Shown piece by piece: positions 4,486 through 25,841 of a stretch of DNA of 29,666 nt. The notes beneath the pieces are model-generated. The model worked only from the letters and a program-made list of their open reading frames with translations. It was not told the origin of the DNA and searched no databases. Where the stretch lies: the IMG/VR virus record IMGVR_UViG_2695420874_000005. One strand, 5' to 3'. Source of the DNA: a virus. Its lineage: Duplodnaviria; Heunggongvirae; Uroviricota; Caudoviricetes. Within the stretch, counting starts at the first letter, position 1, and every line of letters begins with the position of its first letter. The translations under genes were made by a program, and so were the position numbers.

Positions 4486-5004
4486 TCACAGGCCGATATT
4501 GCGGCGGTGTTGCTCCAGCCGGTCGACGCCGTTCACCTTCTCAATCATGTTGATGGTGTCGATTTCGACCAGCTCCTTACCGTCCATCGTCAGCCGGAAA
4601 TAGGTGCAGACCACGGAGATTTTCGACTCGGTGTCTTCTCCCTGTTTACCCTCGCCGGTGTCGATTTCTTTCTGACGGCCACGCATGACCACCTCGACGG
4701 CCACCGTTTCGCCGGTATCGTCGCGCTGGTAAGAGCCTGCAAAACGAATCGGTACGGCATCCACACCGGTTGCGGCGTAAAGCTCCCAGATAACCGAATC
4801 CGGGAAGCCCCCGAGCGACCACTCCATTGACAGCGCATCGTCATCAAGGCCGAGGTCTATCGGTGCGCTGCCGTTCATCCCCGCACCGCGATAGTTTTCG
4901 AGCTTACGGGTCAGTTTTGGCAGCGTGACGGACTTTGCAACGCCCTGATAGCTGTAGCCGTTCAGAAAGACGTTCATTAACTTGAGTTTGCGCGGCATTG
5001 CCAT
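4486..5004 (-). CDS. FII: tail tube protein (P2 gpFII-like), 172 aa
   Basis: 172-aa ORF directly downstream of the sheath gene; length as P2 FII. Confidence 0.9.
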   Translation of the reverse strand: MAMPRKLKLMNVFLNGYSYQGVAKSVTLPKLTRKLENYRGAGMNGSAPIDLGLDDDALSMEWSLGGFPDSVIWELYAATGVDAVPIRFAGSYQRDDTGETVAVEVVMRGRQKEIDTGEGKQGEDTESKISVVCTYFRLTMDGKELVEIDTINMIEKVNGVDRLEQHRRNIGL

Positions 5005-5016
5005 TGGTCAGACTCC

Positions 5017-6207
5017 TTAATTGCTGTTAACCGAGGTGACCAGATTTGCCAGGTATTTATCGGTAATACGCTGGCGCAGGGTCAGGTTTTCAAGAGGAGG
5101 CACCGGTGTATAGTCGTAGTCGATATACAGTTTTCCGGCCTTGAGGGTTTCCGCATCGTTGGATTCTTCGCTGAACCAGCAGGTCGCATCCACGATATAG
5201 CCGTTTGTTTTCAGCTCACGGAATTTGGCATTGATGCCGTCAACGATGTCGCGAATCAGCGTTGCGGTGATGGGCTTGTCCACCGCCCACATGTGCGCCT
5301 CAGCCATCGTGTCGGCCAGCACCTGCGCGGTGCGGGTGTAGTTTTCAAAGAGGAACAGCGGGTCATCGGAGCAGGTACGGTTACCCCAGAAGCGGAAACC
5401 GTCGCGGCGAATCAGCGTTGTGACGCCTGACTCGTTAAGCAGGTCAGCATCGGTGCCGGACTCCTGCAAATCCCAGAATACAGATGCGCTGATGCCAGTA
5501 ACACCGTTCACCCCGACGTTGGACAGCGTTTTATGCCAGCCCTGCTCCTGGTCGATTTTGGCACGCAGACCCAGCGCACGGGCGGTGGCATACGCGGTGG
5601 CGGTGGTACTGGTGACCGTATCCCATGCGAGGAAATCCGGCCAGATAACCATCAGCTCACGCTGGCTGAAATTCTGGCGGTAGGCTTTCACCTCGGAAAT
5701 GGTCTTACAGCCCCATGCTCTGATATATCCGAAAGCGCGCAGCTTCTGACAGACTGATGCCAGTGCAACAGCCACCTCTTTGGTATCCAGCCCCGGCACA
5801 CCAAGAATACGCGGTTTAACACCGGTTACCGACTCCGCCGCCAGCAGGGCTTTCAGTCCGGTGTACTGGCCGTTTTCGTCGGTGGTGCCGATGATATTGG
5901 AAACGGTCTGCGCGAGCTTCGTTTCTTCGTCGTCGCCGGTTCCGTCTTCCACGCGCACGACAACGGTGACCGGTTTTGACTGGTCAGCGATGGCCTGCAA
6001 CGACGCCGCCAGCGTACCTTTTTTACCGGCCTTTGCAATTGCGCTCTGCACATTGGTAATCAGCACCGGTTTATTGAGGGGGAAGGTTTCCGCATCCGCA
6101 TCGCTGGCCGTGCAGACCATGCCGACAATGGCGGTGGATACAGTGGAAATGACGCGGGTGCCGTCGTTAATCTCCAGCACCTGCACGCCATGATGATAGT
6201 CGCTCAT
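5017..6207 (-). CDS. FI: contractile tail sheath protein (P2 gpFI-like), 396 aa
   Basis: 396-aa ORF; length and position as P2 FI. Confidence 0.9.
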   Translation of the reverse strand: MSDYHHGVQVLEINDGTRVISTVSTAIVGMVCTASDADAETFPLNKPVLITNVQSAIAKAGKKGTLAASLQAIADQSKPVTVVVRVEDGTGDDEETKLAQTVSNIIGTTDENGQYTGLKALLAAESVTGVKPRILGVPGLDTKEVAVALASVCQKLRAFGYIRAWGCKTISEVKAYRQNFSQRELMVIWPDFLAWDTVTSTTATAYATARALGLRAKIDQEQGWHKTLSNVGVNGVTGISASVFWDLQESGTDADLLNESGVTTLIRRDGFRFWGNRTCSDDPLFLFENYTRTAQVLADTMAEAHMWAVDKPITATLIRDIVDGINAKFRELKTNGYIVDATCWFSEESNDAETLKAGKLYIDYDYTPVPPLENLTLRQRITDKYLANLVTSVNSN

Positions 6208-6428
6208 CCGTTTAACTCCGTGGTTAATGGGTGAGTGGTATTTTCATGTGTGCCGGAGATGTCAGGCTATTTGTCCCGGTTGGCTGATGGATGGCACAAT
6301 TTATTCTTTGTCGCTGATGAGGCGAATTTTTTATAGAGCGTGGACAGGTCAATATCAAAAATCAGCGCCACACGTTGACGTGATTCCCTCGCAGCCAGCA
6401 ATCGTCCTGCCTGTTCCCACACAGTCGA

Positions 6429-6473
6429 TTATCTGGAGCACTGGAACTTGTCGAAATTTCCAGTGCTCCAGAT
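6429..6473 (-). terminator. 17-bp perfect hairpin immediately downstream of G (candidate terminator or RNA structure, no U-tract)
   Basis: Inverted repeat TATCTGGAGCACTGGAA / TTCCAGTGCTCCAGATA with an 11-nt loop, 11 bp after the G stop. Confidence 0.45.
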
Positions 6474-6483
6474 ATTGAATGGC

Positions 6484-7086
6484 CTACGCCTCCGGCAGTT
6501 CAGGCCAGATAACATCAGGCGCGGTGCTGGTATCTGTTGCCGTCACAGCGTCAATGTAATCCAGCACAGCGTTAAGCCGGGTTGTTTCTGCCTGCGTCAG
6601 TTTCCGCCCGGCCTGTAATTTCAGCTGAATCAGACTAATGGAAGCCATTGCTGCATCAGTCAGTGACTGGCGCTGTGCTTCTGCTGCATCTACTGCGGCG
6701 CTATGCTGTGCCTCGGTATCCGTCACCCATTTCTCACCATCCCATTTATCGTATGGCGTTGACGGGGCGATAGTGGTTGCATTTTCAGGGTAATCACCCG
6801 GAGTTTTGATTTCTTTTGATTCACCTGTTTCGGTGCTATAGACAATTTCACCACGATGGTCTGACACATATTCCCATGATTTTAAATCCATAGAACGGCA
6901 GATAGCATAACCCGCCTTATATGTGCCAGGAGCATCTAAACAGGAATATGCCGGGATACCGACACCAACGGCAAGATATTCATTTGAAGTGGAAATATAT
7001 TCCCGTGTTTCACCATCATAGTTATAGACGGTAATATTCCCCGCCTTCGTGGCAATAAGTTCGCTATTTAATACGGCTTTATCCAT
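6484..7086 (-). CDS. G: tail fibre assembly chaperone (Tfa/gpG-like), 200 aa
   Basis: Directly downstream of and overlapping the tail fibre gene H stop (ATG/TAA overlap at 7084-7088); AT-richer than flanking genes. Confidence 0.8.
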   Translation of the reverse strand: MDKAVLNSELIATKAGNITVYNYDGETREYISTSNEYLAVGVGIPAYSCLDAPGTYKAGYAICRSMDLKSWEYVSDHRGEIVYSTETGESKEIKTPGDYPENATTIAPSTPYDKWDGEKWVTDTEAQHSAAVDAAEAQRQSLTDAAMASISLIQLKLQAGRKLTQAETTRLNAVLDYIDAVTATDTSTAPDVIWPELPEA

Positions 7087-8609
7087 TATGCAGCTCTCAC
7101 GATATAGTTAAATGCAATATTTCGTGGACGGGTTTCGCTCCCACCTGTGTTACCAATACTCCCTCGTGTATGTAGCGTTGGTGATGGAATCAGAGTTCCT
7201 CCGGCATCGGCAGCATCAAGCCCCCGGCCTTGCGTATATGCTCTTCTGAAGATTGTCGCCAGTTCCCATTCCTCTTTTGAATCATACCCATCGTTGGCAA
7301 CAACAATATGGCGGTGTTTTTCCAGCATCCCAGTCTGAATGCTCAATAAAGCACGTCCTGCATCAATACCACGCCCGTCATCCCATCCACGAATAAACTC
7401 ACCACGGAGATCAGGTAGTTTCCCTGATGGATATGCTGTAGCAAGATGGGGATATTTCACCTTATCAAAGGCAGCGCCGTTGCATTTCAGCCAGCCCGTT
7501 GGCGGGGTTGCGGAGGGCCACGGAACAGGTACACCAACAGGCAATGCAGAGCCTTCTCCCAAACCAAGATAATCAAGAACTCCCTGTGTGCTGGGCTTAC
7601 TAAGAATTGCACGACCAACACTTGTCAGTGCAGTTAACGCGGCACGATCTACCCCTGTAAAATAAGGGAGTTTATCTGCCGCTGTAGCAAGCCCTGCCAG
7701 AGCAGTGAGTATGGCGTTTGCCGGTTGTCTTCCATTAGCCAGGTCGTATGCAGCCTTTACCGCTTTTGGCGTTGCAGCCAGTGTTTCAGATGTGCTGTTG
7801 GTTGCACTACTGAGCTGAACAAGCCCTTTTTGCGTCGTGGTGGCGTTCTGGGCGGTATATTTCCCGTTAGCCAGGTCATACGCCGCCTTGACCGCTTTTG
7901 GCGTTGCAGCCAGTGTTTCAGACGTGCTGTTTGTGGCGCTACTGAGTTGAACAAGGCCTTTTCGTGCCGTAGTCGCATCCTGAGCGGTATATTTCCCGTT
8001 AGCCAGGTCATATGCAGCCTTTACCGCTTTCGGTGTTGCGGCCAGTGTTTCAGATGTACTGTTAGTTGCACTGCTTAACTGAGTAAAACCTTTTGCGGTC
8101 AGCGAGGCGTCCGGGTGGCGTCGTGACTGTTCGTGCTCAGAAATTTTGTCATCCACATATTTACGTGTTGCCAGTACCACAGCCGGGTCGATTTTCAGCG
8201 TGATGGCTTCGGTGTTCGTGACAACCAGAATCATGCGGATAGTCTGGGTACGACCACTGCCTTCCTGCAACTGCGGTTTGTACGTTTCCGGGCAGTTCGC
8301 CACCGCAATGAGTACGCCTTCATCATCATAAAGTCCAATCTCACGGATCCAGAATCCGCCCTCGTTTTCAGGGATGATTTGCTCCGCAATAATCTGGCTC
8401 TGATTGTTAGGGTCAACACTCAGAAGATTCAGCGGCGCGATGCGTTTCTGGTTAATCAGTTTTGTCTGTGCCGGGTCTGGTGTCGGCAAGACACCATTCG
8501 CATCACCAACGGCCATTTGCGTCAGATTCAGCTTACTGCCGAGCATCGTCGCGTTAGCCAGCCGTGCTGCGCCCTGATTAGTCAGAATGGCGTAGTATTT
8601 CACTGTCAT
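7086..8609 (-). CDS. H: tail fibre protein (P2 gpH-like N-terminus, collar-type C-terminal domain), 507 aa
   Basis: N-terminal region resembles P2 gpH (…EHEQSRRHPDASLTAKGFTQLSSATNSTSETLAATPKAVK…); three tandem 44-aa repeats; divergent C-terminal domain. Confidence 0.85.
   Translation of the reverse strand: MTVKYYAILTNQGAARLANATMLGSKLNLTQMAVGDANGVLPTPDPAQTKLINQKRIAPLNLLSVDPNNQSQIIAEQIIPENEGGFWIREIGLYDDEGVLIAVANCPETYKPQLQEGSGRTQTIRMILVVTNTEAITLKIDPAVVLATRKYVDDKISEHEQSRRHPDASLTAKGFTQLSSATNSTSETLAATPKAVKAAYDLANGKYTAQDATTARKGLVQLSSATNSTSETLAATPKAVKAAYDLANGKYTAQNATTTQKGLVQLSSATNSTSETLAATPKAVKAAYDLANGRQPANAILTALAGLATAADKLPYFTGVDRAALTALTSVGRAILSKPSTQGVLDYLGLGEGSALPVGVPVPWPSATPPTGWLKCNGAAFDKVKYPHLATAYPSGKLPDLRGEFIRGWDDGRGIDAGRALLSIQTGMLEKHRHIVVANDGYDSKEEWELATIFRRAYTQGRGLDAADAGGTLIPSPTLHTRGSIGNTGGSETRPRNIAFNYIVRAA
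7739..8100. repeat. three tandem copies of a 132-bp unit (third partial) inside H
   Basis: Unit starts (ccaggtc...) at 7739, 7871 and 8003; encodes repeated LSSATNSTSETLAATPKAVKAAYDLANGKYTAQ segments. Confidence 0.85.
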
Positions 8610-16757: not shown

Positions 16758-18530
16758 ATGACCATCACCACAGACACCACTCTTTTACACGACCCGCGTC
16801 GTCAGGCGGCGCTGCTGTACTGGCAGGGGTTTTCCGTGCCGCAGATTGCCGCCATGTTGCAGATGAAACGCCCGACGGTGCAGAGCTGGAAACAGCGCGA
16901 CGGCTGGGACAGCGTTGCCCCCATCAGCCGTGTCGAAATGAGTCTGGAAGCGCGGCTGACCCAGCTCATCATCAAACCGCAGAAAACCGGCGGTGACTTC
17001 AAGGAAATTGACCTGCTGGGACGCCAGATTGAACGACTGGCACGGGTAAATCGTTACAGCCAGACCGGCAACGAGGCAGACCTTAATCCGAACGTCGCTA
17101 ACCGCAACAAAGGCGGGCGGCGCAAACCGAAAAAAAATTTTTTCAGTGACGAGGCCATCGAAAAGCTGGAGCAGATTTTCTTTGAGCAGTCTTTCGACTA
17201 TCAGTTGCACTGGTATCGCGCCGGGCTTGAGCACCGCATCCGCGATATCCTGAAATCCCGCCAGATTGGCGCGACGTTTTATTTTTCCCGCGAGGCGCTG
17301 CTGCGCGCCCTGAAAACCGGCCATAACCAGATTTTTCTGTCGGCCAGTAAAACGCAGGCGTATGTGTTCCGCGAATACATCATCGCCTTTGCCCGGCTGG
17401 TTGACGTTGACCTGACTGGTGACCCGATTGTCCTGGGCAATAACGGCGCAAAACTGATTTTTCTCGGCACCAACTCCAACACCGCACAGAGCCATAACGG
17501 CGACCTGTACGTCGACGAGATTTTCTGGATCCCGAATTTTCAGGTACTGCGTAAGGTGGCATCAGGTATGGCCTCACAGAGTCACCTGCGCTCGACTTAT
17601 TTCTCCACCCCGTCCACGCTGGCGCACGACGCCTACCCGTTCTGGTCGGGTGAACTGTTTAACCGGGGACGCGCCAGCGCCGCCGAACGCGTGGAAATCG
17701 ACGTCAGTCATAACGCCCTTGCCGGTGGGCTTCTCTGTGCAGACGGCCAGTGGCGGCAGATTGTCACCATTGAGGACGCCCTGAAAGGTGGCTGCACGCT
17801 GTTCGACATTGAGCAGCTTAAACGCGAAAACAGCGCCGACGATTTTAAAAACCTGTTCATGTGTGAATTTGTTGACGACAAGGCGTCGGTGTTCCCGTTC
17901 GAGGAGCTGCAACGCTGCATGGTCGACACGCTGGAAGAATGGGAAGACTATGCGCCGTTTGCCGCGAATCCGTTCGGCTCCCGCCCGGTATGGATTGGTT
18001 ACGACCCGTCACACCGTGGCGACAGCGCCGGATGCGTGGTGCTGGCACCACCGGTGGTGGCCGGTGGCAAATTCAGAATACTTGAGCGTCACCAGTGGAA
18101 AGGCATGGACTTTGCCACCCAGGCTGAATCCATCCGCAAACTCACCGAAAAATACAACGTCGAATACATCGGAATTGATGCCACCGGCCTCGGTGTCGGC
18201 GTGTTCCAGCTCGTGCGCTCGTTCTATCCCGCCGCGCGCGACATCCGCTACACGCCGGAAATGAAAACCGCAATGGTGCTCAAGGCAAAAGACGTTATCC
18301 GTCGTGGCTGTCTGGAATATGACGTCAGCGCCACCGACATCACCAGCTCGTTTATGGCTATCCGCAAGACCATGACCAGCAGCGGACGCAGTGCCACCTA
18401 TGAGGCCAGCCGCAGCGAGGAAGCCAGCCACGCCGACCTCGCCTGGGCGACCATGCACGCCCTGTTAAATGAGCCACTCACCGCCGGTATCAGCACCCCG
18501 CTGACATCCACCATTCTGGAGTTTTACTGA
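16758..18530 (+). CDS. P: terminase large (ATPase) subunit (P2 gpP-like), 590 aa
   Basis: Start MTITTD at ATG 16758; 590 aa as P2 gpP; overlaps Q start (TGATG). Confidence 0.9.
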   Translation: MTITTDTTLLHDPRRQAALLYWQGFSVPQIAAMLQMKRPTVQSWKQRDGWDSVAPISRVEMSLEARLTQLIIKPQKTGGDFKEIDLLGRQIERLARVNRYSQTGNEADLNPNVANRNKGGRRKPKKNFFSDEAIEKLEQIFFEQSFDYQLHWYRAGLEHRIRDILKSRQIGATFYFSREALLRALKTGHNQIFLSASKTQAYVFREYIIAFARLVDVDLTGDPIVLGNNGAKLIFLGTNSNTAQSHNGDLYVDEIFWIPNFQVLRKVASGMASQSHLRSTYFSTPSTLAHDAYPFWSGELFNRGRASAAERVEIDVSHNALAGGLLCADGQWRQIVTIEDALKGGCTLFDIEQLKRENSADDFKNLFMCEFVDDKASVFPFEELQRCMVDTLEEWEDYAPFAANPFGSRPVWIGYDPSHRGDSAGCVVLAPPVVAGGKFRILERHQWKGMDFATQAESIRKLTEKYNVEYIGIDATGLGVGVFQLVRSFYPAARDIRYTPEMKTAMVLKAKDVIRRGCLEYDVSATDITSSFMAIRKTMTSSGRSATYEASRSEEASHADLAWATMHALLNEPLTAGISTPLTSTILEFY

Positions 18531-19564
18531 TGAGCAAGAAAAAAGGGAAAACATCGCAACCTGCGGCAAAAAAAATGACCGCCAGCGCCCCGAAAATGGA
18601 GGCATTCACCTTTGGTGAGCCGGTGCCGGTACTCGACCGCCGTGACATTCTGGATTACGTCGAGTGCATCAGTAACGGCAGATGGTATGAGCCACCGGTC
18701 AGCTTTACCGGTCTGGCAAAAAGCCTGCGTGCTGCCGTGCATCACAGCTCACCGATTTACGTCAAACGCAATATTCTGGCCTCGACATTTATCCCGCATC
18801 CGTGGCTTTCCCAGCAGGATTTCAGCCGCTTTGTACTGGATTTTCTGGTGTTCGGTAATGCGTTTCTGGAAAAGCGTTACAGCACCACCGGTAAGGTCAT
18901 CAGACTGGAAACCTCACCGGCAAAATATACCCGCCGTGGTGTGGAAGAGGATGTTTACTGGTGGGTGCCGTCCTTCAACGAGCCGACAGCCTTCACGCCC
19001 GGCTCCGTGTTTCACCTGCTGGAGCCGGATATTAATCAGGAGTTGTACGGCCTGCCGGAATATCTCAGCGCCCTTAATTCTGCCTGGCTGAATGAGTCGG
19101 CCACGCTGTTCCGCCGAAAGTATTACGAAAATGGCGCTCATGCCGGATACATCATGTACGTCACCGATGCCGTGCAGGATCGCAACGATATCGAAATGCT
19201 TCGCGAAAACATGGTTAAGTCGAAAGGCCGCAACAACTTTAAAAATCTGTTTCTCTATGCCCCACAGGGGAAAGCCGACGGCATCAAAATTATCCCGCTC
19301 AGTGAAGTGGCGACGAAGGACGATTTTTTTAATATCAAAAAAGCCAGCGCCGTTGACCTGCTGGATGCGCACCGCATCCCCTTTCAGTTGATGGGCGGCA
19401 AGCCGGAAAACGTCGGGTCTCTGGGTGATATTGAGAAAGTGGCAAAGGTCTTTGTCCGCAATGAGCTTATCCCGTTACAGGACAGGATCCGCGAGATAAA
19501 CGGCTGGCTCGGTCAGGAGGTCATCCGCTTTAAAAACTACTCACTGGACACTGACAACGGCTGA
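18530..19564 (+). CDS. Q: portal protein (P2 gpQ-like), 344 aa
   Basis: 344 aa as P2 gpQ; immediately upstream of cos. Confidence 0.9.
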   Translation: MSKKKGKTSQPAAKKMTASAPKMEAFTFGEPVPVLDRRDILDYVECISNGRWYEPPVSFTGLAKSLRAAVHHSSPIYVKRNILASTFIPHPWLSQQDFSRFVLDFLVFGNAFLEKRYSTTGKVIRLETSPAKYTRRGVEEDVYWWVPSFNEPTAFTPGSVFHLLEPDINQELYGLPEYLSALNSAWLNESATLFRRKYYENGAHAGYIMYVTDAVQDRNDIEMLRENMVKSKGRNNFKNLFLYAPQGKADGIKIIPLSEVATKDDFFNIKKASAVDLLDAHRIPFQLMGGKPENVGSLGDIEKVAKVFVRNELIPLQDRIREINGWLGQEVIRFKNYSLDTDNG

Positions 19565-19569
19565 ACATC

Positions 19570-19591
19570 GCCGCCTGCGGGCGGCTTTTTT
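19570..19591 (+). terminator. intrinsic terminator after Q
   Basis: GCCGCC-tgcg-GGCGGC hairpin followed by TTTTTT, 6 bp after the Q stop. Confidence 0.65.
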
Positions 19592-19733
19592 ACAACCCGT
19601 CATCACGCCCTCACACGCTCACCACCGCGCAAAACAGCCCGCAGACAAACCAACGCCCCGGCGCACAATCTAAACGCCATCACGACGCGCTCAGACGCTG
19701 AAAAAATAAAATCAGCACCACCGCCAGCGCGCA

Positions 19734-19752
19734 GTGCTTTCCCCGCCTCGCC
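19734..19752. other. cos: cos cohesive-end site (P2 19-nt cos, reverse complement)
   Basis: gtgctttccccgcctcgcc is the reverse complement of GGCGAGGCGGGGAAAGCAC, the P2/P4 cohesive end as I recall it; located next to Q. Confidence 0.6.
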
Positions 19753-19959
19753 CGCCCGCTTCATGGGGCGCTTTTAATGCAGTTTCATGAATACGTTGGA
19801 AGCGCGCCAGACGTCACGGACAATACTTCAAATAAGTAAAGCTAATGCATGCAAAAAAATTCACGTCCATGCATACACCAGAAACTGCCATTTATAAGGA
19901 TGATGTATGCAGTAGCCATATAAAAAGCTATACTCTTGCCGGTTTATCAGGGGGAGAAA

Positions 19960-20943
19960 ATGCCAAAAGCTGTATCATTGTTCTCGGGTTGTGGTGGTTC
20001 CGATGCTGGATTAAGCAAAGCTGGTTTCGACATCGTTATGGCAAACGATATTTTGCCATATGCGAGAGAGGTTTATCTCGCAAACCTACCAGAAACAGAT
20101 TACCTAATCCAAGATATCCGAGAAGTTGAAAAATTTCCGAGTGCAGACCTTCTTGTTGGATGCTATCCATGCCAAGGATTTAGCCAAGGTGGCGCACGTC
20201 TTGCGGACAGGAGTATAAATTTTTTATATAAAGAGTTTGCACGTGCATTAACCAATATTCAACCTAAAGCATTTATTGTCGAAAATGTTTCAGGTATGAG
20301 AAATAGTACATTTAAGCATCTACTCGATGATCAAATAAAACGCTTCTCCAATGCTGGTAATATAGGCTATAAAGTTGTTTGGAATATACTCAAAGCTCAC
20401 CACTACGGTGTACCGCAAGAGCGTAAGAGATTAATAATTGTAGGTATTCGTAACGACTTCGACCTAGAATATAAATTCCCTGAAGCCACACATGGTGAGG
20501 AAAAATCATTACCTTATGTAACAATCGGTGAAGCACTAAAGGGATTACCTGAATGGCCAATCGGTGAGTTTTGTGATGACCCATTTCACTGGTACTATTT
20601 ATCTAGGAATAGACGCCGCAACTGGGACGAAGTTAGTAAAACTATCGTAAGTAATCTTCGTCATATTCCCTTGCATCCCATCAGCCCCGAATTAAAAAAA
20701 GTGGGTATAGACAAGTGGGAGTTTATAACAAACTCGCCAGCCAGACGCTTCTCTTATAAAGAAGCGGCGATTCTGCAAGGGTTTAGTAAAGAATATACCA
20801 ATCATGGTGGTTATCTAACTTTTCCTGACATGGATAGTTTTGGGGCCGCACGGATGTTAAAAGAGAGATATAAGGTCGTAGGTAATGCAGTTCCACCACC
20901 TTTGTTTGAAGCGGTTGTGAGAAACATCCCTGATATATGGTAA
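19960..20943 (+). CDS. DNA (cytosine-5)-methyltransferase, 327 aa
   Basis: Motif I LFSGCGG, motif IV PCQ (Cys71, TGC at 20170-20172), motif VI ENV, motif VIII QERKR, motif X GNAVPPPL; SD GGGGAG 6 nt before ATG 19960; AT-rich. Confidence 0.85.
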   Translation: MPKAVSLFSGCGGSDAGLSKAGFDIVMANDILPYAREVYLANLPETDYLIQDIREVEKFPSADLLVGCYPCQGFSQGGARLADRSINFLYKEFARALTNIQPKAFIVENVSGMRNSTFKHLLDDQIKRFSNAGNIGYKVVWNILKAHHYGVPQERKRLIIVGIRNDFDLEYKFPEATHGEEKSLPYVTIGEALKGLPEWPIGEFCDDPFHWYYLSRNRRRNWDEVSKTIVSNLRHIPLHPISPELKKVGIDKWEFITNSPARRFSYKEAAILQGFSKEYTNHGGYLTFPDMDSFGAARMLKERYKVVGNAVPPPLFEAVVRNIPDIW

Positions 20944-20944
20944 T

Positions 20945-20966
20945 GGCCCATCACTGGGCCTTTTTT
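20945..20966 (+). terminator. intrinsic terminator of the methyltransferase gene, overlapping the 3' end of the convergent 318-aa gene
   Basis: GGCCCA-tcac-TGGGCC hairpin followed by TTTTTT, starting 2 bp after the MTase stop; covers the last codons of the convergent gene. Confidence 0.55.
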
Positions 20967-21907
20967 AATTCTTTACAAAAGGTAATTAACGCATCTAACT
21001 CATCCTGCATATCACCAAATTCATCCTTAAAACGCTCATATGCAATAGTTAAACGGACTCGATCAAATATAATTCCAGCTTCTGCGCTTGCTTCTCTTAT
21101 CATTTCATCAACTAACACATAAGGTGTTGAGAAAACTTTAACACACTTAATGTAAGTTAATGGATGAAACCATGGTGTTAACCTTTCAATTTTAATATCC
21201 TGAAACTTTGTTGACCAATCATTACCACAAGCGCATTGCCCTAAAGCAAATAAACGTCCATCTCTACCATCCAAAAAATCAACCCATGTAACAAAATCCA
21301 CACCACAATCTTTAATTCTCAATGCATCCTCATCTCTTAAGCCATTCTCTACGCGCCAAGACCATTCTCTTGTATTTGGTGAGATCGAAGAGTTCAGTTT
21401 ATAAGCTAGTTCCTTATAACTACTAGGATTTCCATTTGAACGAGGCCAACCAGTATGCATGTGTTTTGCGTGTGAACTAAAAAATTTTGTGAATAATCGC
21501 CCAGCCATAACTTCAAAAAATCTAGGCAACTTAACATTATCTCCTTTTGTTAAATTATTAATTACAGAGACACATAAGCAAAACAGATAAACAAGGGAAG
21601 GAGACTCCTTTAATGTTAGATGATTTTCTTTATATTCAAATGGATACATATCATCCAAAACCTTTGCTCTCCATTGTATATGCTCGGCAATCTGACCAAC
21701 TAAAAGCTCCTTTCCCTGATCTTCCATCATCCATTCTTCTTCCAAATGACCATCTAAATTTTCTAACTCATCATAGATAGTTCCAGCAATTTTATCATCC
21801 TCAATTCCTGAGTCTATTGTCGCGCTAACATCAAGTAATGCATTAAATTCTGCTTGATCCGCATCTGTTGCGAATCCCTGCATTTTAGAGCGTAAACCAT
21901 AATTCAC
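20951..21907 (-). CDS. hypothetical protein, 318 aa, second gene of hotspot operon (possible nuclease/effector)
   Basis: GTG start 2 bp after upstream stop with SD GAGGG 9 nt upstream (translational coupling); AT-rich; no Walker A motif; no motif recognised by eye. Confidence 0.6.
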   Translation of the reverse strand: MNYGLRSKMQGFATDADQAEFNALLDVSATIDSGIEDDKIAGTIYDELENLDGHLEEEWMMEDQGKELLVGQIAEHIQWRAKVLDDMYPFEYKENHLTLKESPSLVYLFCLCVSVINNLTKGDNVKLPRFFEVMAGRLFTKFFSSHAKHMHTGWPRSNGNPSSYKELAYKLNSSISPNTREWSWRVENGLRDEDALRIKDCGVDFVTWVDFLDGRDGRLFALGQCACGNDWSTKFQDIKIERLTPWFHPLTYIKCVKVFSTPYVLVDEMIREASAEAGIIFDRVRLTIAYERFKDEFGDMQDELDALITFCKELKKAQ

Positions 21908-21909
21908 AA

Positions 21910-23085
21910 TTAAAAACCCTCACTATCACTTCCAGTAATAGCCTCATTAATTGATACTCTAAAAGATCTAAATTGTTTACTTATTTGCTCAAGATATATA
22001 TTAAGTTGAATAGCATCCTGCATTGGTAAATCTTCACGCCCTACCCTCGTAAGACATTCGTCCAATTTACTTCTAATTTCTAACATTAAACTAGTCAACC
22101 TATCGCCGATTGGCTGAGTTAGGTCATTAATGTCTTCAACATCCTTGCCTTGCTTGAGCAGTATAACTTTTTCTGGAGAAGCAACTATCTCAGCCAAGAC
22201 ACCAAGATTACGAGAGTCTTTAACTTGTGAGTTTTGTCCTTTATTTTTATTACCAAACATAGCTGTCATTAGAAGCTTCGCATTATCCAATTTCTTTTCA
22301 TCTATTGGATTAGGGTCTGTAGGATTATCTGATAAGCCCACAAAATCCTGAATACTCTTATAACTCAGCAATGTATAAACCCACGAGAATGGATAACTAG
22401 TATTGCTCCCTCTCCCTTTCTTCACACTATCATCTTTATTATACTTCCCAGCAGACTCCATTTGTTTAATGAAATTATATCCAGACAAAAGTCTTTTTAT
22501 AGTGCTATTACGGTCACCAATCATAGTGGAAATATCAGATACGCTCATATCTCCTTCCTTGATGGTTCGAGATATCCATGCAGCCTTAGCGTATGAATCC
22601 CAATCCTTTGTAGATACGATATGCCTCACACCTAAATATGATATAAGTGATTTTTTATCTACACCATCATCGTCTTCAAAAACTATTGCTGGAACTGGGT
22701 CTATTTTAGGGCACCCATGAGAATTGTATTTATCAATATACTGTTGATGCAGATTAACTTGATCTCTTGCTCTGTCATCATTTTTAAGTATAAGACAGGC
22801 AGCCAGCCTTCTATTACCTTCCATTACAGTGAATTTCTTATTATTATTTTTCCTCACCACCATTGGCTCAGCAGAAAAATAACCATTCACTGCAATAGAA
22901 CTTATTACATCAGTAACGCCATAATTTTTAACAATATTATTCAGCACATCAACTTGTGTATCAGATGAAGAAGAGTCTTCACCAAAGCGGGGGTTTTCAA
23001 CATCAAGCTCCAGATCTTCAATATTAATATATTGAACTGCTTTATGTTTTAATTTATCCTCCACACCTACCGAGTTTTTTTTCAT
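21910..23085 (-). CDS. ParB/Srx-like N-terminal domain protein with putative HTH, 391 aa
   Basis: N-terminal region (aa about 17-100) with ParB-like pattern and GxRRxxA-type motif (EGNRRLAA, nt 22807-22821); HTH-like segment MSVSDISTMIGDRNSTIKRLL; strong SD GGGGAGGGG before ATG; AT-rich. Confidence 0.65.
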   Translation of the reverse strand: MKKNSVGVEDKLKHKAVQYINIEDLELDVENPRFGEDSSSSDTQVDVLNNIVKNYGVTDVISSIAVNGYFSAEPMVVRKNNNKKFTVMEGNRRLAACLILKNDDRARDQVNLHQQYIDKYNSHGCPKIDPVPAIVFEDDDGVDKKSLISYLGVRHIVSTKDWDSYAKAAWISRTIKEGDMSVSDISTMIGDRNSTIKRLLSGYNFIKQMESAGKYNKDDSVKKGRGSNTSYPFSWVYTLLSYKSIQDFVGLSDNPTDPNPIDEKKLDNAKLLMTAMFGNKNKGQNSQVKDSRNLGVLAEIVASPEKVILLKQGKDVEDINDLTQPIGDRLTSLMLEIRSKLDECLTRVGREDLPMQDAIQLNIYLEQISKQFRSFRVSINEAITGSDSEGF

Positions 23086-23281
23086 ATGTTTACCCCTCCC
23101 CTAAATTCTGGAATGCAACAGTGCTCAACCCTACTCTCGTTTCTGCACACCTAACATACAACAGCTAGTTTTTCCATGATAGCTTTTGCTGTCGATGCTA
23201 GACAAGCCAAAGCCTACAGCGGTCTTATACTATTCTGTTTTAACTGCATACAATCCTACCGTTTATTAACTGATTGTAAAC

Positions 23282-25576
23282 TCAAGCACCACAATCAAAA
23301 AAATCAACAGAAGGAAATCCAAGCCACTCATCAGCGACCTGATAAGTGAAATGTTTCCCGTCATAATTTACGGTTGCCCCACGCGCCAGCGCCTCAAGCT
23401 CCCATCGCTGCGGCCTGATACCGTTCTGAGCAAGGTCAACGCGGATACGGGTGATTTGCATTCTTTCCGACCGGGTCAGTCTGGCCGATGGTGCAATTTC
23501 ATGTGGTTTTAACGGGCTTCCGTTTCTTTGCTGACGGTTTGGCGTTCTCAGGTCGTATTTTAGTGCGCCCCTGAGCGCCCTCACGACCTCCGGTTCATTC
23601 CATTCAATAACACCGTCATCAACCAGATTAAGCACTGCTGCGGCGTGCTCAGAAGGTGTGGGAGCCGGTAACGAAGTATCACCACCGGTGAGCTTTCCAC
23701 AGTTATTGACAGGACTCCGAGGCGCGGCGATGCCGCTTTTTAAAGTCAAAGGCTCAACGACCGGAACTTTCGGCACAATGCGCCACTCCGTCGTTCTGGT
23801 GATATGAATATGACGCGCGCCGAGATGCGGTGCGTAAATGCCGACCACTCTCTCGACCTCTTCCTCGTACTCGTTAACGTCATCCGACGGGCTACGGGCG
23901 ACCCTGACAGTCTGACAATCGCGCGGGACATTTGCCCCACCCTGCGCGCGGATATACAACGCAAAATCACCACTGTCTGCGGCGGCGCGTGCAGCCTCGA
24001 CGCGCTCGTCAAACTCATCAGCAATGCTGACGCCGCGAGGCAATTTGCGTAGTTCACGGTAAGCCCCCATTGTCGGCAGGCCAACCGTTTTAAATTGTGG
24101 TATGCGCCACGTTGACGCCCATGCGGTAACAGCCGCCGCTGTGTCTTTCAGCGGCCTGCCGGTATCGTTATCGAGCTGACCATCCAGTGCATAGCCATCG
24201 ATGTTTTTTGAGATGTATTTCGCGATATATCCCGCAGCACCGCCCCGGTTAAGGTGTTTTGCCTGAAAACGGTTTCGCGCGGCTCCTCTTTCGTCACCAT
24301 CCTCTTTGAGCGCATAGCGACGCATGATTTCGATAATCTGGTTACGCTGGCGTGGATTACAAAAAAGCATCATATGCCAGTGCGGCGTTCCGTCGTGGTG
24401 TGGCTCGACGACACGCAAACCGTAGACCTGTAAATCATTATCCTTGAATGCCGTGCGCATCAGGCTCCAGATACGGCAGAGATAACGCTGCGCATCCTTT
24501 GGATTAAATGCCTCATCATTCCAGCCGTGATTAAGCTGGACGGTTTTTCTTTCGCCTTTTCCGACCTGACGTGTCGGGTGATACTTTGACGGCGCGGTCA
24601 GCGTGATAAACATCCCCACATCACCCTCTGCGGCGGCGTAACGCTCAATACCGGCAATGGTGTTCATCAGCTCCATCCGGCGAATTTCAGGATTAGAAAT
24701 ACTGCCCATCACCTTACTGATAAGGTCGATGCGTTCGCCGGTTTCCCTGTTTTCAAGGTCACACGATTTAAGAAATTCCAGATTTGCCTGGCGGCGCGCA
24801 CGCACATCACGAATGGCGTGTTTACTGGCATAAGGAGAACGGTCTTTATTGACCTCCCCGACAGCTATCAGTAACGCTTCATGCCAGCGCATACGCTGGC
24901 CTTTAAGCTGACTAATCCACCACTCATCGTTAAACAGACGGGCAATGGCAGAATATGCCTGCCTCGTGGTCATCTGTCCTTTACGGTATTTTTTCCAGTA
25001 GAGAGGGGAAATATTGAAAGCACGTGCAGCGCCAGCAACATGACCATAGAGGTGAGCCTGCGCCTCATCCGTAAACAGCGATTCTTTTTCGCCATGCGCA
25101 TCCACCCAGGCATCGCAGAGTTCCTCATACATCATGAAAAGCTGCGATGAAATACGGGCGGCAAACTTTTTCAGCTCCTTATCATTCATCCCCGGCAGAC
25201 GCGCATAATGGTCACGCTCTGCCAGAAACAGCAACGACGCGTCGGTGTTCATTTCATGGCGCTGATTCACGCGCTCAATGCGCGGCCATAAACGACGCTG
25301 AAAAGTGGATGTGAGGAAATAAAACCCGTGCACCGGGCTTTTATTGCGCCGGATGTAGTCATAGCGTGAAGTAAACAGCGAACGCAAAAAGTAAGGCAGG
25401 CGGTTAATCGTGGATAAAACACCTTGCACCTGACGCATCTCGTCACGTGTAAGGGGTCTTTCGCGCCCGACGGCCTCGCGTGGCGCGTTCCATGCATAAG
25501 CACCGGTAAACGCCTTACCGGTGCCTGCAGCAAATGCTGAAGGAGGGACAAAACGCCCGGAGGCTTTAACGGCCAT
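23282..25576 (-). CDS. A: replication initiation endonuclease (P2 gpA-like rolling-circle initiator), 764 aa
   Basis: Start at MAVKASGRFVPP (ATG 25576); long match to P2 gpA as recalled; the TTG start at 25618 in the ORF track is rejected. Confidence 0.9.
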   Translation of the reverse strand: MAVKASGRFVPPSAFAAGTGKAFTGAYAWNAPREAVGRERPLTRDEMRQVQGVLSTINRLPYFLRSLFTSRYDYIRRNKSPVHGFYFLTSTFQRRLWPRIERVNQRHEMNTDASLLFLAERDHYARLPGMNDKELKKFAARISSQLFMMYEELCDAWVDAHGEKESLFTDEAQAHLYGHVAGAARAFNISPLYWKKYRKGQMTTRQAYSAIARLFNDEWWISQLKGQRMRWHEALLIAVGEVNKDRSPYASKHAIRDVRARRQANLEFLKSCDLENRETGERIDLISKVMGSISNPEIRRMELMNTIAGIERYAAAEGDVGMFITLTAPSKYHPTRQVGKGERKTVQLNHGWNDEAFNPKDAQRYLCRIWSLMRTAFKDNDLQVYGLRVVEPHHDGTPHWHMMLFCNPRQRNQIIEIMRRYALKEDGDERGAARNRFQAKHLNRGGAAGYIAKYISKNIDGYALDGQLDNDTGRPLKDTAAAVTAWASTWRIPQFKTVGLPTMGAYRELRKLPRGVSIADEFDERVEAARAAADSGDFALYIRAQGGANVPRDCQTVRVARSPSDDVNEYEEEVERVVGIYAPHLGARHIHITRTTEWRIVPKVPVVEPLTLKSGIAAPRSPVNNCGKLTGGDTSLPAPTPSEHAAAVLNLVDDGVIEWNEPEVVRALRGALKYDLRTPNRQQRNGSPLKPHEIAPSARLTRSERMQITRIRVDLAQNGIRPQRWELEALARGATVNYDGKHFTYQVADEWLGFPSVDFFDCGA

Positions 25577-25841
25577 ATGAGCCAAAAGCCTCTGAACAAC
25601 GCCTGCTGAGTTGCTCAACCTGCGCGTTTAAATCAGCAAAAGACTTTGCGCTTCCGGTCAGAATATCGTGATGCATCAGGCCGGAAACGAGCTGGCTTAA
25701 TTTCGGATAATAACCAACCACCGCCAGCCATTCCTGACCGGCGTTTTTACCGCTTTCCGCTCTCTTTTTCTCGTGGAGAATAAACTGAAAGCTGTCACTG
25801 GTAACGACATAACGTTCGCCAATTTCAATACGAATACTCAT
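25566..25841 (-). CDS. small early protein (P2 orf83-like), 91 aa
   Basis: ATG with SD GGAGAA; overlaps the upstream gene stop (ATGA); sits in the early operon just before A. Confidence 0.6.
   Translation of the reverse strand: MSIRIEIGERYVVTSDSFQFILHEKKRAESGKNAGQEWLAVVGYYPKLSQLVSGLMHHDILTGSAKSFADLNAQVEQLSRRCSEAFGSYGR

Follow-up and report, generated by a model that had tools for sequence, protein, structure and literature searches.

A ParB-fold protein, a predicted nuclease and a C5 cytosine methyltransferase form a conserved prophage cassette that looks like a defence system related to PD-lambda-5

Proteins that share the ParB-CTPase fold are known as partition, nucleoid-occlusion and transcription clamps. 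A survey of the fold flagged many orphan and methyltransferase-fused versions without an assigned role (PMC12704722). ParB/Srx NTPases serving as DNA sensors coupled to a nuclease have been described for the DUF262-type ParB domains of GmrSD, SspE and the Menshen protein NsnA (PMC12065111). PD-lambda-5 is a validated anti-phage pair from Escherichia coli prophages, consisting of a ParB/HEPN-like protein and a D12 N6-adenine methyltransferase; it was selected experimentally in E. coli, its cloning required an mrr-deleted host, and its authors termed it a compacted restriction-modification plus abortive infection (RM+Abi) system (PMC9519451). We found no published mechanism for PD-lambda-5. Here we analyse a gene for a ParB-fold protein, A, on a 29,666 nucleotide (nt) stretch of DNA from a virus of the Caudoviricetes (IMG/VR record IMGVR_UViG_2695420874_000005). 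This whole stretch is called the window below, and positions refer to it unless another locus is named. Gene A is accompanied by two further genes, B and M:

21910-23085, minus strand: gene A, 391 amino acids (aa), ParB-CTPase fold; ATG start with a GGAGG Shine-Dalgarno sequence 8 nt upstream.
20951-21907, minus strand: gene B, 318 aa, predicted PD-(D/E)xK nuclease; GTG start 2 nt past the TAA stop of A.
19960-20943, plus strand: gene M, C5 cytosine DNA methyltransferase, convergent with B.

An earlier note on this stretch had described A as coupled to a 318-aa protein of unknown function. The coupling holds, and judging from the 2 nt spacing B is translationally coupled to A. The partner is no longer without a clue to its function, since its modelled structure has the PD-(D/E)xK restriction-endonuclease fold, and the proposed two-gene module has to be extended by the convergent methyltransferase gene, which is conserved as a third member. 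A three-gene unit that includes a C5 methyltransferase makes the cassette restriction-modification (R-M)-like. We think it fairly likely that A is the nucleoside triphosphate (NTP)-gated DNA-binding subunit of a defence cassette of this kind, in which B would be the nuclease and M the 5-methylcytosine (m5C) methyltransferase. Shown here are the folds, the conservation of motifs and pockets, the order and coupling of A and B, the shuffled position of the conserved M, the correlated divergence of the three genes, the kinship with PD-lambda-5 and a fusion of a methyltransferase with an A-type protein. Beyond these observations we infer anti-phage activity, nucleotide binding, clamping, cleavage, contact between A and B and which subunit reads methylation.

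Protein A has an N-terminal nucleotide-binding-type domain, a helix-turn-helix (HTH) and a conserved helical C-terminal domain that ends in a long helical hairpin. The 391-aa open reading frame (ORF) and the peptides quoted for it in the earlier note are present on the minus strand. The note had also claimed an N-terminal ParB/Srx-like domain followed by an HTH, and both are borne out by structure: the AlphaFold model of A (predicted local distance difference test score 86) matches KorB, ParB, Noc and PadC over the N-domain and the HTH, and the HTH is seen in the model as well as in an hhalign alignment with Spo0J. From sequence alone the ParB assignment is weak. Pfam ParB_N scores 14.6 bits (E = 0.034), under its cut-off of 26.3, and NCBIfam parB_part (TIGR00180) 28.4 bits, under its cut-off of 58.45. 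No DUF262 Pfam match was found in A at E ≤ 1. PDB sequences were also searched, using profiles of both proteins A and B as well as residues 1-215 of A, and gave noise only. Judged by its large family of homologues, which are full-length at 45-50% identity, A is a real gene. Altogether, 1330 homologues were found, mostly of about 385 aa; among 1.84 billion representatives the family comprises 463 clusters (50% identity) at E ≤ 1e-30 and 3826 at E ≤ 1e-3. The motifs of A are located as follows:

22984-22995, minus strand: NPRF motif, residues 31-34, all four invariant; aligns with the N-terminal QPR motif of ParB.
22807-22821, minus strand: EGNRR, residues 89-93, Box II or P-motif with the GxxR phosphate-binding arginines.
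22621-22638, minus strand: YLGVRH, residues 150-155, at the position of ParB Box III (ENLQR); R154 is kept and Asn is replaced by Leu (L151).
22471-22548, minus strand: HTH DNA-binding segment, approximately residues 180-205.
21913-22440, minus strand: C-terminal helical domain, residues 216-391, with the invariant motifs GRGS..YPFSW.YT, MFG and DSR.

The residue correspondence was taken from an hhalign comparison of A with Bacillus subtilis Spo0J; the probability was 58%, and the mapping is provisional. It pairs NPRF with QPR, EGNRR with GERR, PAIVF with PAIVR, YLGVR with ENLQR and HTH with HTH, and it shows a 26-residue insertion in A after Box II. The GxRRxxA-like motif that had been noticed at 22807-22821 is the EGNRR of A aligned to GERR, with N91 in the place of the catalytic Glu in this provisional alignment. 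N31, P32, R33, E89, G90, N91, R92, R93 and R154 are invariant in 44 homologues of A; among these, R33, R92, R93 and R154 are the arginines assigned to phosphate binding. In the C-terminal domain, helices 326-350 and 355-384 form the hairpin, which may be a dimerisation or partner-binding element; structure searches with this domain gave no informative match. Which nucleotide a ParB fold uses (CTP, ATP or GTP) is not predictable from sequence or AlphaFold3 (PMC12704722).

As had been noticed before, A lacks a ParA partner: there is none in the window, and no ParA recurs near A across 58 related loci, where only two Mrp/NUBPL-type matches were seen. The N-terminal ParA-binding motif LG(R/K)GL was not found in the alignment of A homologues. 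Such a ParB is less unusual than had been thought, as approximately 23% of the chromosomal bacterial parB genes lie outside parAB operons (PMC12704722).

Protein B has no family match in Pfam, NCBIfam or PADLOC; its only one is PHROG 14650, a family of unknown function, and a match to MspJI covers the generic nuclease domain only. Two conserved elements could belong to its active site:

21206-21298, minus strand: candidate catalytic core D204...Q224-C-A...K234, in invariant columns and at strand positions.
21512-21514, minus strand: E132, upstream of the core, invariant.

In the model, all four residues fall where they are expected: E132 on the helix, D204 on strand 2, Q224 on strand 3 and K234 on the helix after it. 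The position of the canonical Lys is occupied by Ala in B; a distant homologue in locus L084 (described below) has Q-C-K and no later Lys. This fits a migrated catalytic lysine, with K234 as the candidate in B. On the basis of its modelled fold B is likely the DNA cutter of the cassette. The earlier note had suggested that A might be the DNA-sensing or nicking component of a defence module; sensing is also our best reading, whereas nothing points to nicking by the ParB domain.

M matches Pfam DNA_methylase over profile positions 3-322 of 324 (4.8e-59) and contains the full set of catalytic motifs (FSGCGG, PCQ, ENV, QERKR and GNAV). The mechanically called ORF opens at TTG 19936 (335 aa). The true start is probably ATG 19960, giving a protein of 327 aa, because this codon is preceded by a GGGGGAG Shine-Dalgarno sequence and the resulting N-terminus agrees with that of the orthologue in phage Wphi (MP.VVSLFSGCGG). 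A 94-aa ORF at 19845-20129, which overlaps the start of M, looks spurious. The best PADLOC match of M is DruM of type II Druantia (7.5e-106, full length), and the best type II R-M methyltransferase model reaches 1.1e-73. Since DruM is matched better than any type II R-M methyltransferase model, this suggests a methyltransferase lineage common to Druantia II and the cassette.

The linkage of the three genes was surveyed in 80 loci encoding relatives of A, taken from one-genome-per-species contigs and searched for B and M with tblastn. At least five phyla are represented: the loci belong to Gamma-, Alpha- and Betaproteobacteria, Vicinamibacteria (Acidobacteriota), Bacteroidota, Planctomycetota and Verrucomicrobiota. 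Of the 80 loci, 77 contain B, directly downstream of A every time, and an orthologous M (47-82% identity) adjoins the A-B pair in about 73. The arrangements are A>B>M< (n = 50), A>B>M> (n = 14), M>A>B> (n = 7) and M<A>B> (n = 2); loci with a missing gene are mostly cut by a contig end. The distance matrices of A and B correlate with r = 0.86, those of A and M with 0.43 and those of B and M with 0.38, values that 0 of 300 permutations reached. The high correlation of the A and B sequences suggests physical co-adaptation of the two proteins. M is the most conserved protein (mean pairwise identity 0.55), followed by A (0.42) and then B (0.35), as is usual for methyltransferase compared with restriction genes.

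Vsr, the T:G mismatch endonuclease of very-short-patch repair, is a companion of active m5C methyltransferases. Clustering of all ORFs showed Vsr as the sole further recurrent family, present in 23 of the 80 loci (for instance L007:9148-9564, Pfam 8e-28); the cassette in the window has no vsr gene. All other neighbours of the trio vary between loci. At L028:8530-10390 the A-B pair is followed by vsr and an SNF2/ResIII helicase gene in place of the orthologous methyltransferase. In a Planctomycetales metagenome-assembled genome (L085, same as L061, positions 5001-7920), the frame of A continues into the N-terminal portion of B (P0194, 534 aa). What is left of B forms an ORF of its own (178 aa), and the methyltransferase is cut down to 218 aa. 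P0194 was rejected as a genuine A-B fusion on account of the split B and the truncated methyltransferase, and the locus is probably a degraded or mis-assembled (long-read) copy of the trio.

The cassette is located in P2 hotspot 1, between the portal gene gpQ (18530-19564) and the replication gene gpA (23282-25618), which agrees with the earlier placement of A in a prophage defence hotspot. In P2 itself this site is occupied by old/tin, and relatives of P2 carry many defence systems there (PMC9519451). Wphi has a diverged trio in this hotspot (orf98, orf96 and mth; NC_005056.1, 29419-32589; locus L081), as do vB_EcoM-12474III and the Yersinia phages L-413C and HQ103; a further one is found in Pseudomonas phage D14A (Citexvirus) between early genes and tail genes. 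The diverged proteins are 25-29% (A), 24% (B) and 63% (M) identical to those of the window. Of 5426 complete E. coli genomes, 104 carry the Wphi-type trio, E. coli W among them; together, the window-type and Wphi-type trios are found in approximately 141.

At least 25 PADLOC PD-Lambda-5_A models match A, the best with 3.1e-19 over residues 17-173 (profile positions 4-161 of 466). All of these matches end by about position 200 and none is full-length. A comparison of A with a bona fide PD-lambda-5_A by hhalign gave a probability of 94%, and the PD-lambda-5_A of L084 also has EGNRR. By profile comparison, PD-lambda-5_A comes closest to the ParB module of A and is a far better match than partition ParB. 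As regards the trio, PADLOC contains only an unvalidated candidate, PDC-M38A, which has part of A in common. L084:1012-9457 (metagenome contig ERZ27234644 k141_275141) is an apparent compact defence island. It encodes, in this order, a full-length PD-lambda-5_A (2e-165), P0277, the B homologue (hhalign 98%), a 153-aa ORF and Pycsar-cyclase-like, RdrA-like and adenosine-deaminase-like proteins. P0277 (663 aa) unites in one chain a D12 methyltransferase of the PD-Lambda-5_B type (4e-100) and an entire A-type protein, showing that a methyltransferase can be covalently joined to A. In L084, one methyltransferase seems to serve two different ParB-type effectors. Taken with the C5 trios, this locus indicates that the A-B pair can go with either an m5C or an N6-methyladenine methyltransferase.

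We propose that M would methylate a short target sequence in the DNA of host and prophage. A dimer of A would bind unmodified incoming DNA via the HTH and the C-terminal domain, and a nucleotide (CTP or ATP) at the pocket of NPRF, EGNRR and R154 would engage the N-domains, acting as a switch or a clamp. Engaged A would recruit or license B, and B would cleave the DNA. In a more far-reaching version, which is possible but which we hold only tentatively, the trio would represent an unrecognised class of R-M systems: a ParB-type nucleotide-gated clamp would replace the helicase or AAA+ motor, load on unmethylated DNA, slide, and deliver or activate the PD-(D/E)xK nuclease. If true, this would be the first restriction system driven by a CTP/NTP switch and would also hint at how PD-lambda-5 works. 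A literature search found neither a described system of ParB, nuclease and C5 methyltransferase nor a CTP-dependent restriction system, and Rousset et al. (2022) mention neither ParB nor methyltransferase.

Several observations weigh against A being an NTP-gated subunit of an R-M-like defence cassette. Canonical ParB needs two residues for CTP hydrolysis that are replaced in A: N91 stands in the place of the GERR Glu, and L151 in that of the ENLQR Asn (according to the provisional alignment). Because of these replacements A may bind nucleotide but leave it unhydrolysed, or it may be no clamp at all. The recognition helix of the HTH differs between A and Wphi gp98, while M is 63% identical including its target-recognition region. 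The trio shows no enrichment in defence islands: housekeeping genes predominate among 115 flanking ORFs of 58 loci, R-M or BREX genes and integrases being few, and guilt by association is weak for the trio, with the exception of L084. A few A-B loci have no orthologous M; L031 has no adjacent methyltransferase at all, and L028, L064 and L080 carry a different C5 methyltransferase. At L060:8159-10145, the genes after A-B encode another C5 methyltransferase together with a NotI-like restriction endonuclease, a separate type II R-M system. A common recognition site for M and the HTH of A was dropped as unsupported, since the Wphi comparison shows the target-recognition region of M to be kept and the recognition helix of A not.

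Controller genes of R-M systems are usually located directly upstream of the nuclease gene and co-transcribed with it. A is likewise directly upstream of B and co-transcribed with it, it carries an HTH, and its top structural matches include KorB, a CTP-dependent ParB-fold repressor; A might therefore resemble KorB or a C protein and, as a ParB-fold repressor, time or limit the expression of B and M in a type II R-M system. We consider this improbable, since A has 391 aa with a highly conserved 175-aa C-terminal domain, and the A-B distance correlation suggests physical co-adaptation. The EGNRR ParB module is fused to an effector-like C-terminus in PD-lambda-5_A and to a methyltransferase in P0277, which is not controller-like, and between 19560 and 23300 no operator-like or parS-like repeats were found above chance, short repeats occurring at chance level only. 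In another reading, R-M would be combined with abortive infection: A would respond to a phage cue (for instance an anti-restriction factor, a replication intermediate or the ends of phage DNA) by releasing B as a suicide nuclease, and M would have a separate protective or epigenetic function or be an antidote. The closeness of the ParB module of A to PD-lambda-5_A speaks for it, given that Vassallo et al. (PMC9519451) describe PD-lambda-5 as a compacted RM+Abi system. The exchange of the methyltransferase type (C5 subfamilies, D12 in L084) would be easier to understand if A-B read no particular methylated sequence, and the divergence of the HTH of A beside a conserved target-recognition region in M points the same way. 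However, a methyltransferase is kept beside A-B in approximately 73 of the 80 loci at shuffled positions and is fused to A in one case, which argues for a direct dependence on methylation; moreover, a nuclease with a methyltransferase is the classical self/non-self logic. We regard this reading as unlikely.

Very unlikely, in our view, are two further possibilities: that A-B is a modification-dependent (type IV-like) nuclease with M unrelated to it, or that A is a ParB for partition of the prophage or organisation of the chromosome. An m5C-dependent nuclease next to its cognate m5C methyltransferase would be self-destructive, and the similarity to MspJI is confined to the generic nuclease domain. 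For a partition protein, ParA, the LG(R/K)GL motif and parS-like repeats were not found and the TIGR00180 score is under the cut-off. P2 integrates into the chromosome, and a plasmid search did not find the cassette on plasmids.

The window is a nearly complete P2-like E. coli prophage with genes for terminase, portal, gpA, Cox and integrase. A prophage with 100% identity is present in 37 of the 5426 complete E. coli genomes, with the cassette between portal and gpA in every case. The 3.5-kb cassette stretch has a GC content of 35-40%, compared with approximately 55% in the flanking backbone. Two non-coding features border its genes:

23086-23281, minus strand: intergenic region from the gpA stop to the A start, with the ribosome-binding site of A and two weak sigma-70-like matches.
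20945-20960: GC-rich hairpin where the 3′ ends of M and B converge.

The region 23086-23281 may hold a promoter of the cassette's own; in the promoter scan, sigma-70-like matches were no commoner than in shuffled sequence. The hairpin is likely a bidirectional terminator. At the other end of the cassette, a GC-rich stretch of approximately 230 bp within 19565-19935, between the portal gene and the low-GC cassette, with terminator-like hairpins at 19568-19585 and 19753-19770, is probably the left junction of the hotspot insert. An Rfam scan of the whole window gave no match.

By its gene content and sequence relationships, the cassette looks like a methyltransferase-linked ParB-fold defence system related to PD-lambda-5. 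Compact and widely distributed, it ties a ParB-fold protein to a restriction-type nuclease and a protective methyltransferase, and it offers a testable model for the working of PD-lambda-5, which is validated and mechanistically unexplained. It also gives a likely function to the hitherto unexplained Wphi genes orf96, orf98 and mth. Current tools for defence annotation overlook the cassette: B matches no PADLOC model, and the locus would be scored as an orphan methyltransferase.

Compared with known systems, the cassette resembles PD-lambda-5 in combining a DNA methyltransferase with a protein whose N-terminal ParB module belongs to the same EGNRR subclade, and both are prophage-borne in E. 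coli. L084 joins the two physically, with PD-lambda-5_A, the fusion of a PD-lambda-5_B-type methyltransferase with an A-type protein, and a B homologue side by side. The two differ in that the match of A stops at about residue 175, its C-terminal half having no relationship to the HEPN/DUF4145-like end of PD-lambda-5_A. As effector the cassette has a separate PD-(D/E)xK gene, its methyltransferase is a C5 cytosine and not a D12 adenine enzyme, and it consists of three genes where PD-lambda-5 has two. With these differences in C-terminal half, class of methyltransferase and number of genes, the cassette lies outside PD-lambda-5 as defined.

With the CTP-dependent ParB clamps (ParB/Spo0J, Noc, KorB and PadC) A has in common the fold of the N-domain, the GxxR Box II arginines and the central HTH, and its C-terminal helical region could dimerise. 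It differs from them in lacking a ParA partner, the ParA-binding motif and parS, in the 26-residue insertion after Box II and in the replaced Box II Glu and Box III Asn; furthermore, its partners are a nuclease and a methyltransferase. A is outside the partition ParB family, as its scores remain under the cut-offs and neither ParA nor parS was found. Type II R-M systems are similar in having a stand-alone C5 methyltransferase with all catalytic motifs and a PD-(D/E)xK-fold nuclease in a compact mobile cassette of variable orientation; there, too, conservation is higher in the methyltransferase than in the nuclease, and a vsr gene is sometimes present. Unlike in these systems, a strictly conserved third gene, that of the ParB-fold protein A, precedes the nuclease gene and is coupled to it. 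A is kept with B in 77 of 77 B-bearing loci, so that the unit does not consist of two components (M + R). Its obligatory third gene sets the cassette apart from plain type II R-M systems. The DUF262 sensors differ in carrying a DGxQR variant and in mostly sensing modified DNA, whereas A is of the canonical GxRR type (EGNRR) and stands beside a protective methyltransferase.

In CglI/NgoAVII (M+R+H), type III Res/Mod and McrBC, a separate NTPase couples site recognition to distant cleavage. The NTPases of these systems are superfamily 2 helicase-like or AAA+ proteins, and the nuclease of CglI/NgoAVII is of the PLD type. The type III enzymes use ATP as a switch to a sliding state, which conceptually resembles a ParB clamp. 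The cassette shares with these NTP-dependent multi-subunit restriction systems the logic of a methyltransferase, a nuclease and a separate NTPase, although no sequence or fold relationship to them was found. By this analogy, the cassette would work most like an NTP-dependent multi-subunit restriction system in which a ParB-fold protein serves as the NTPase.

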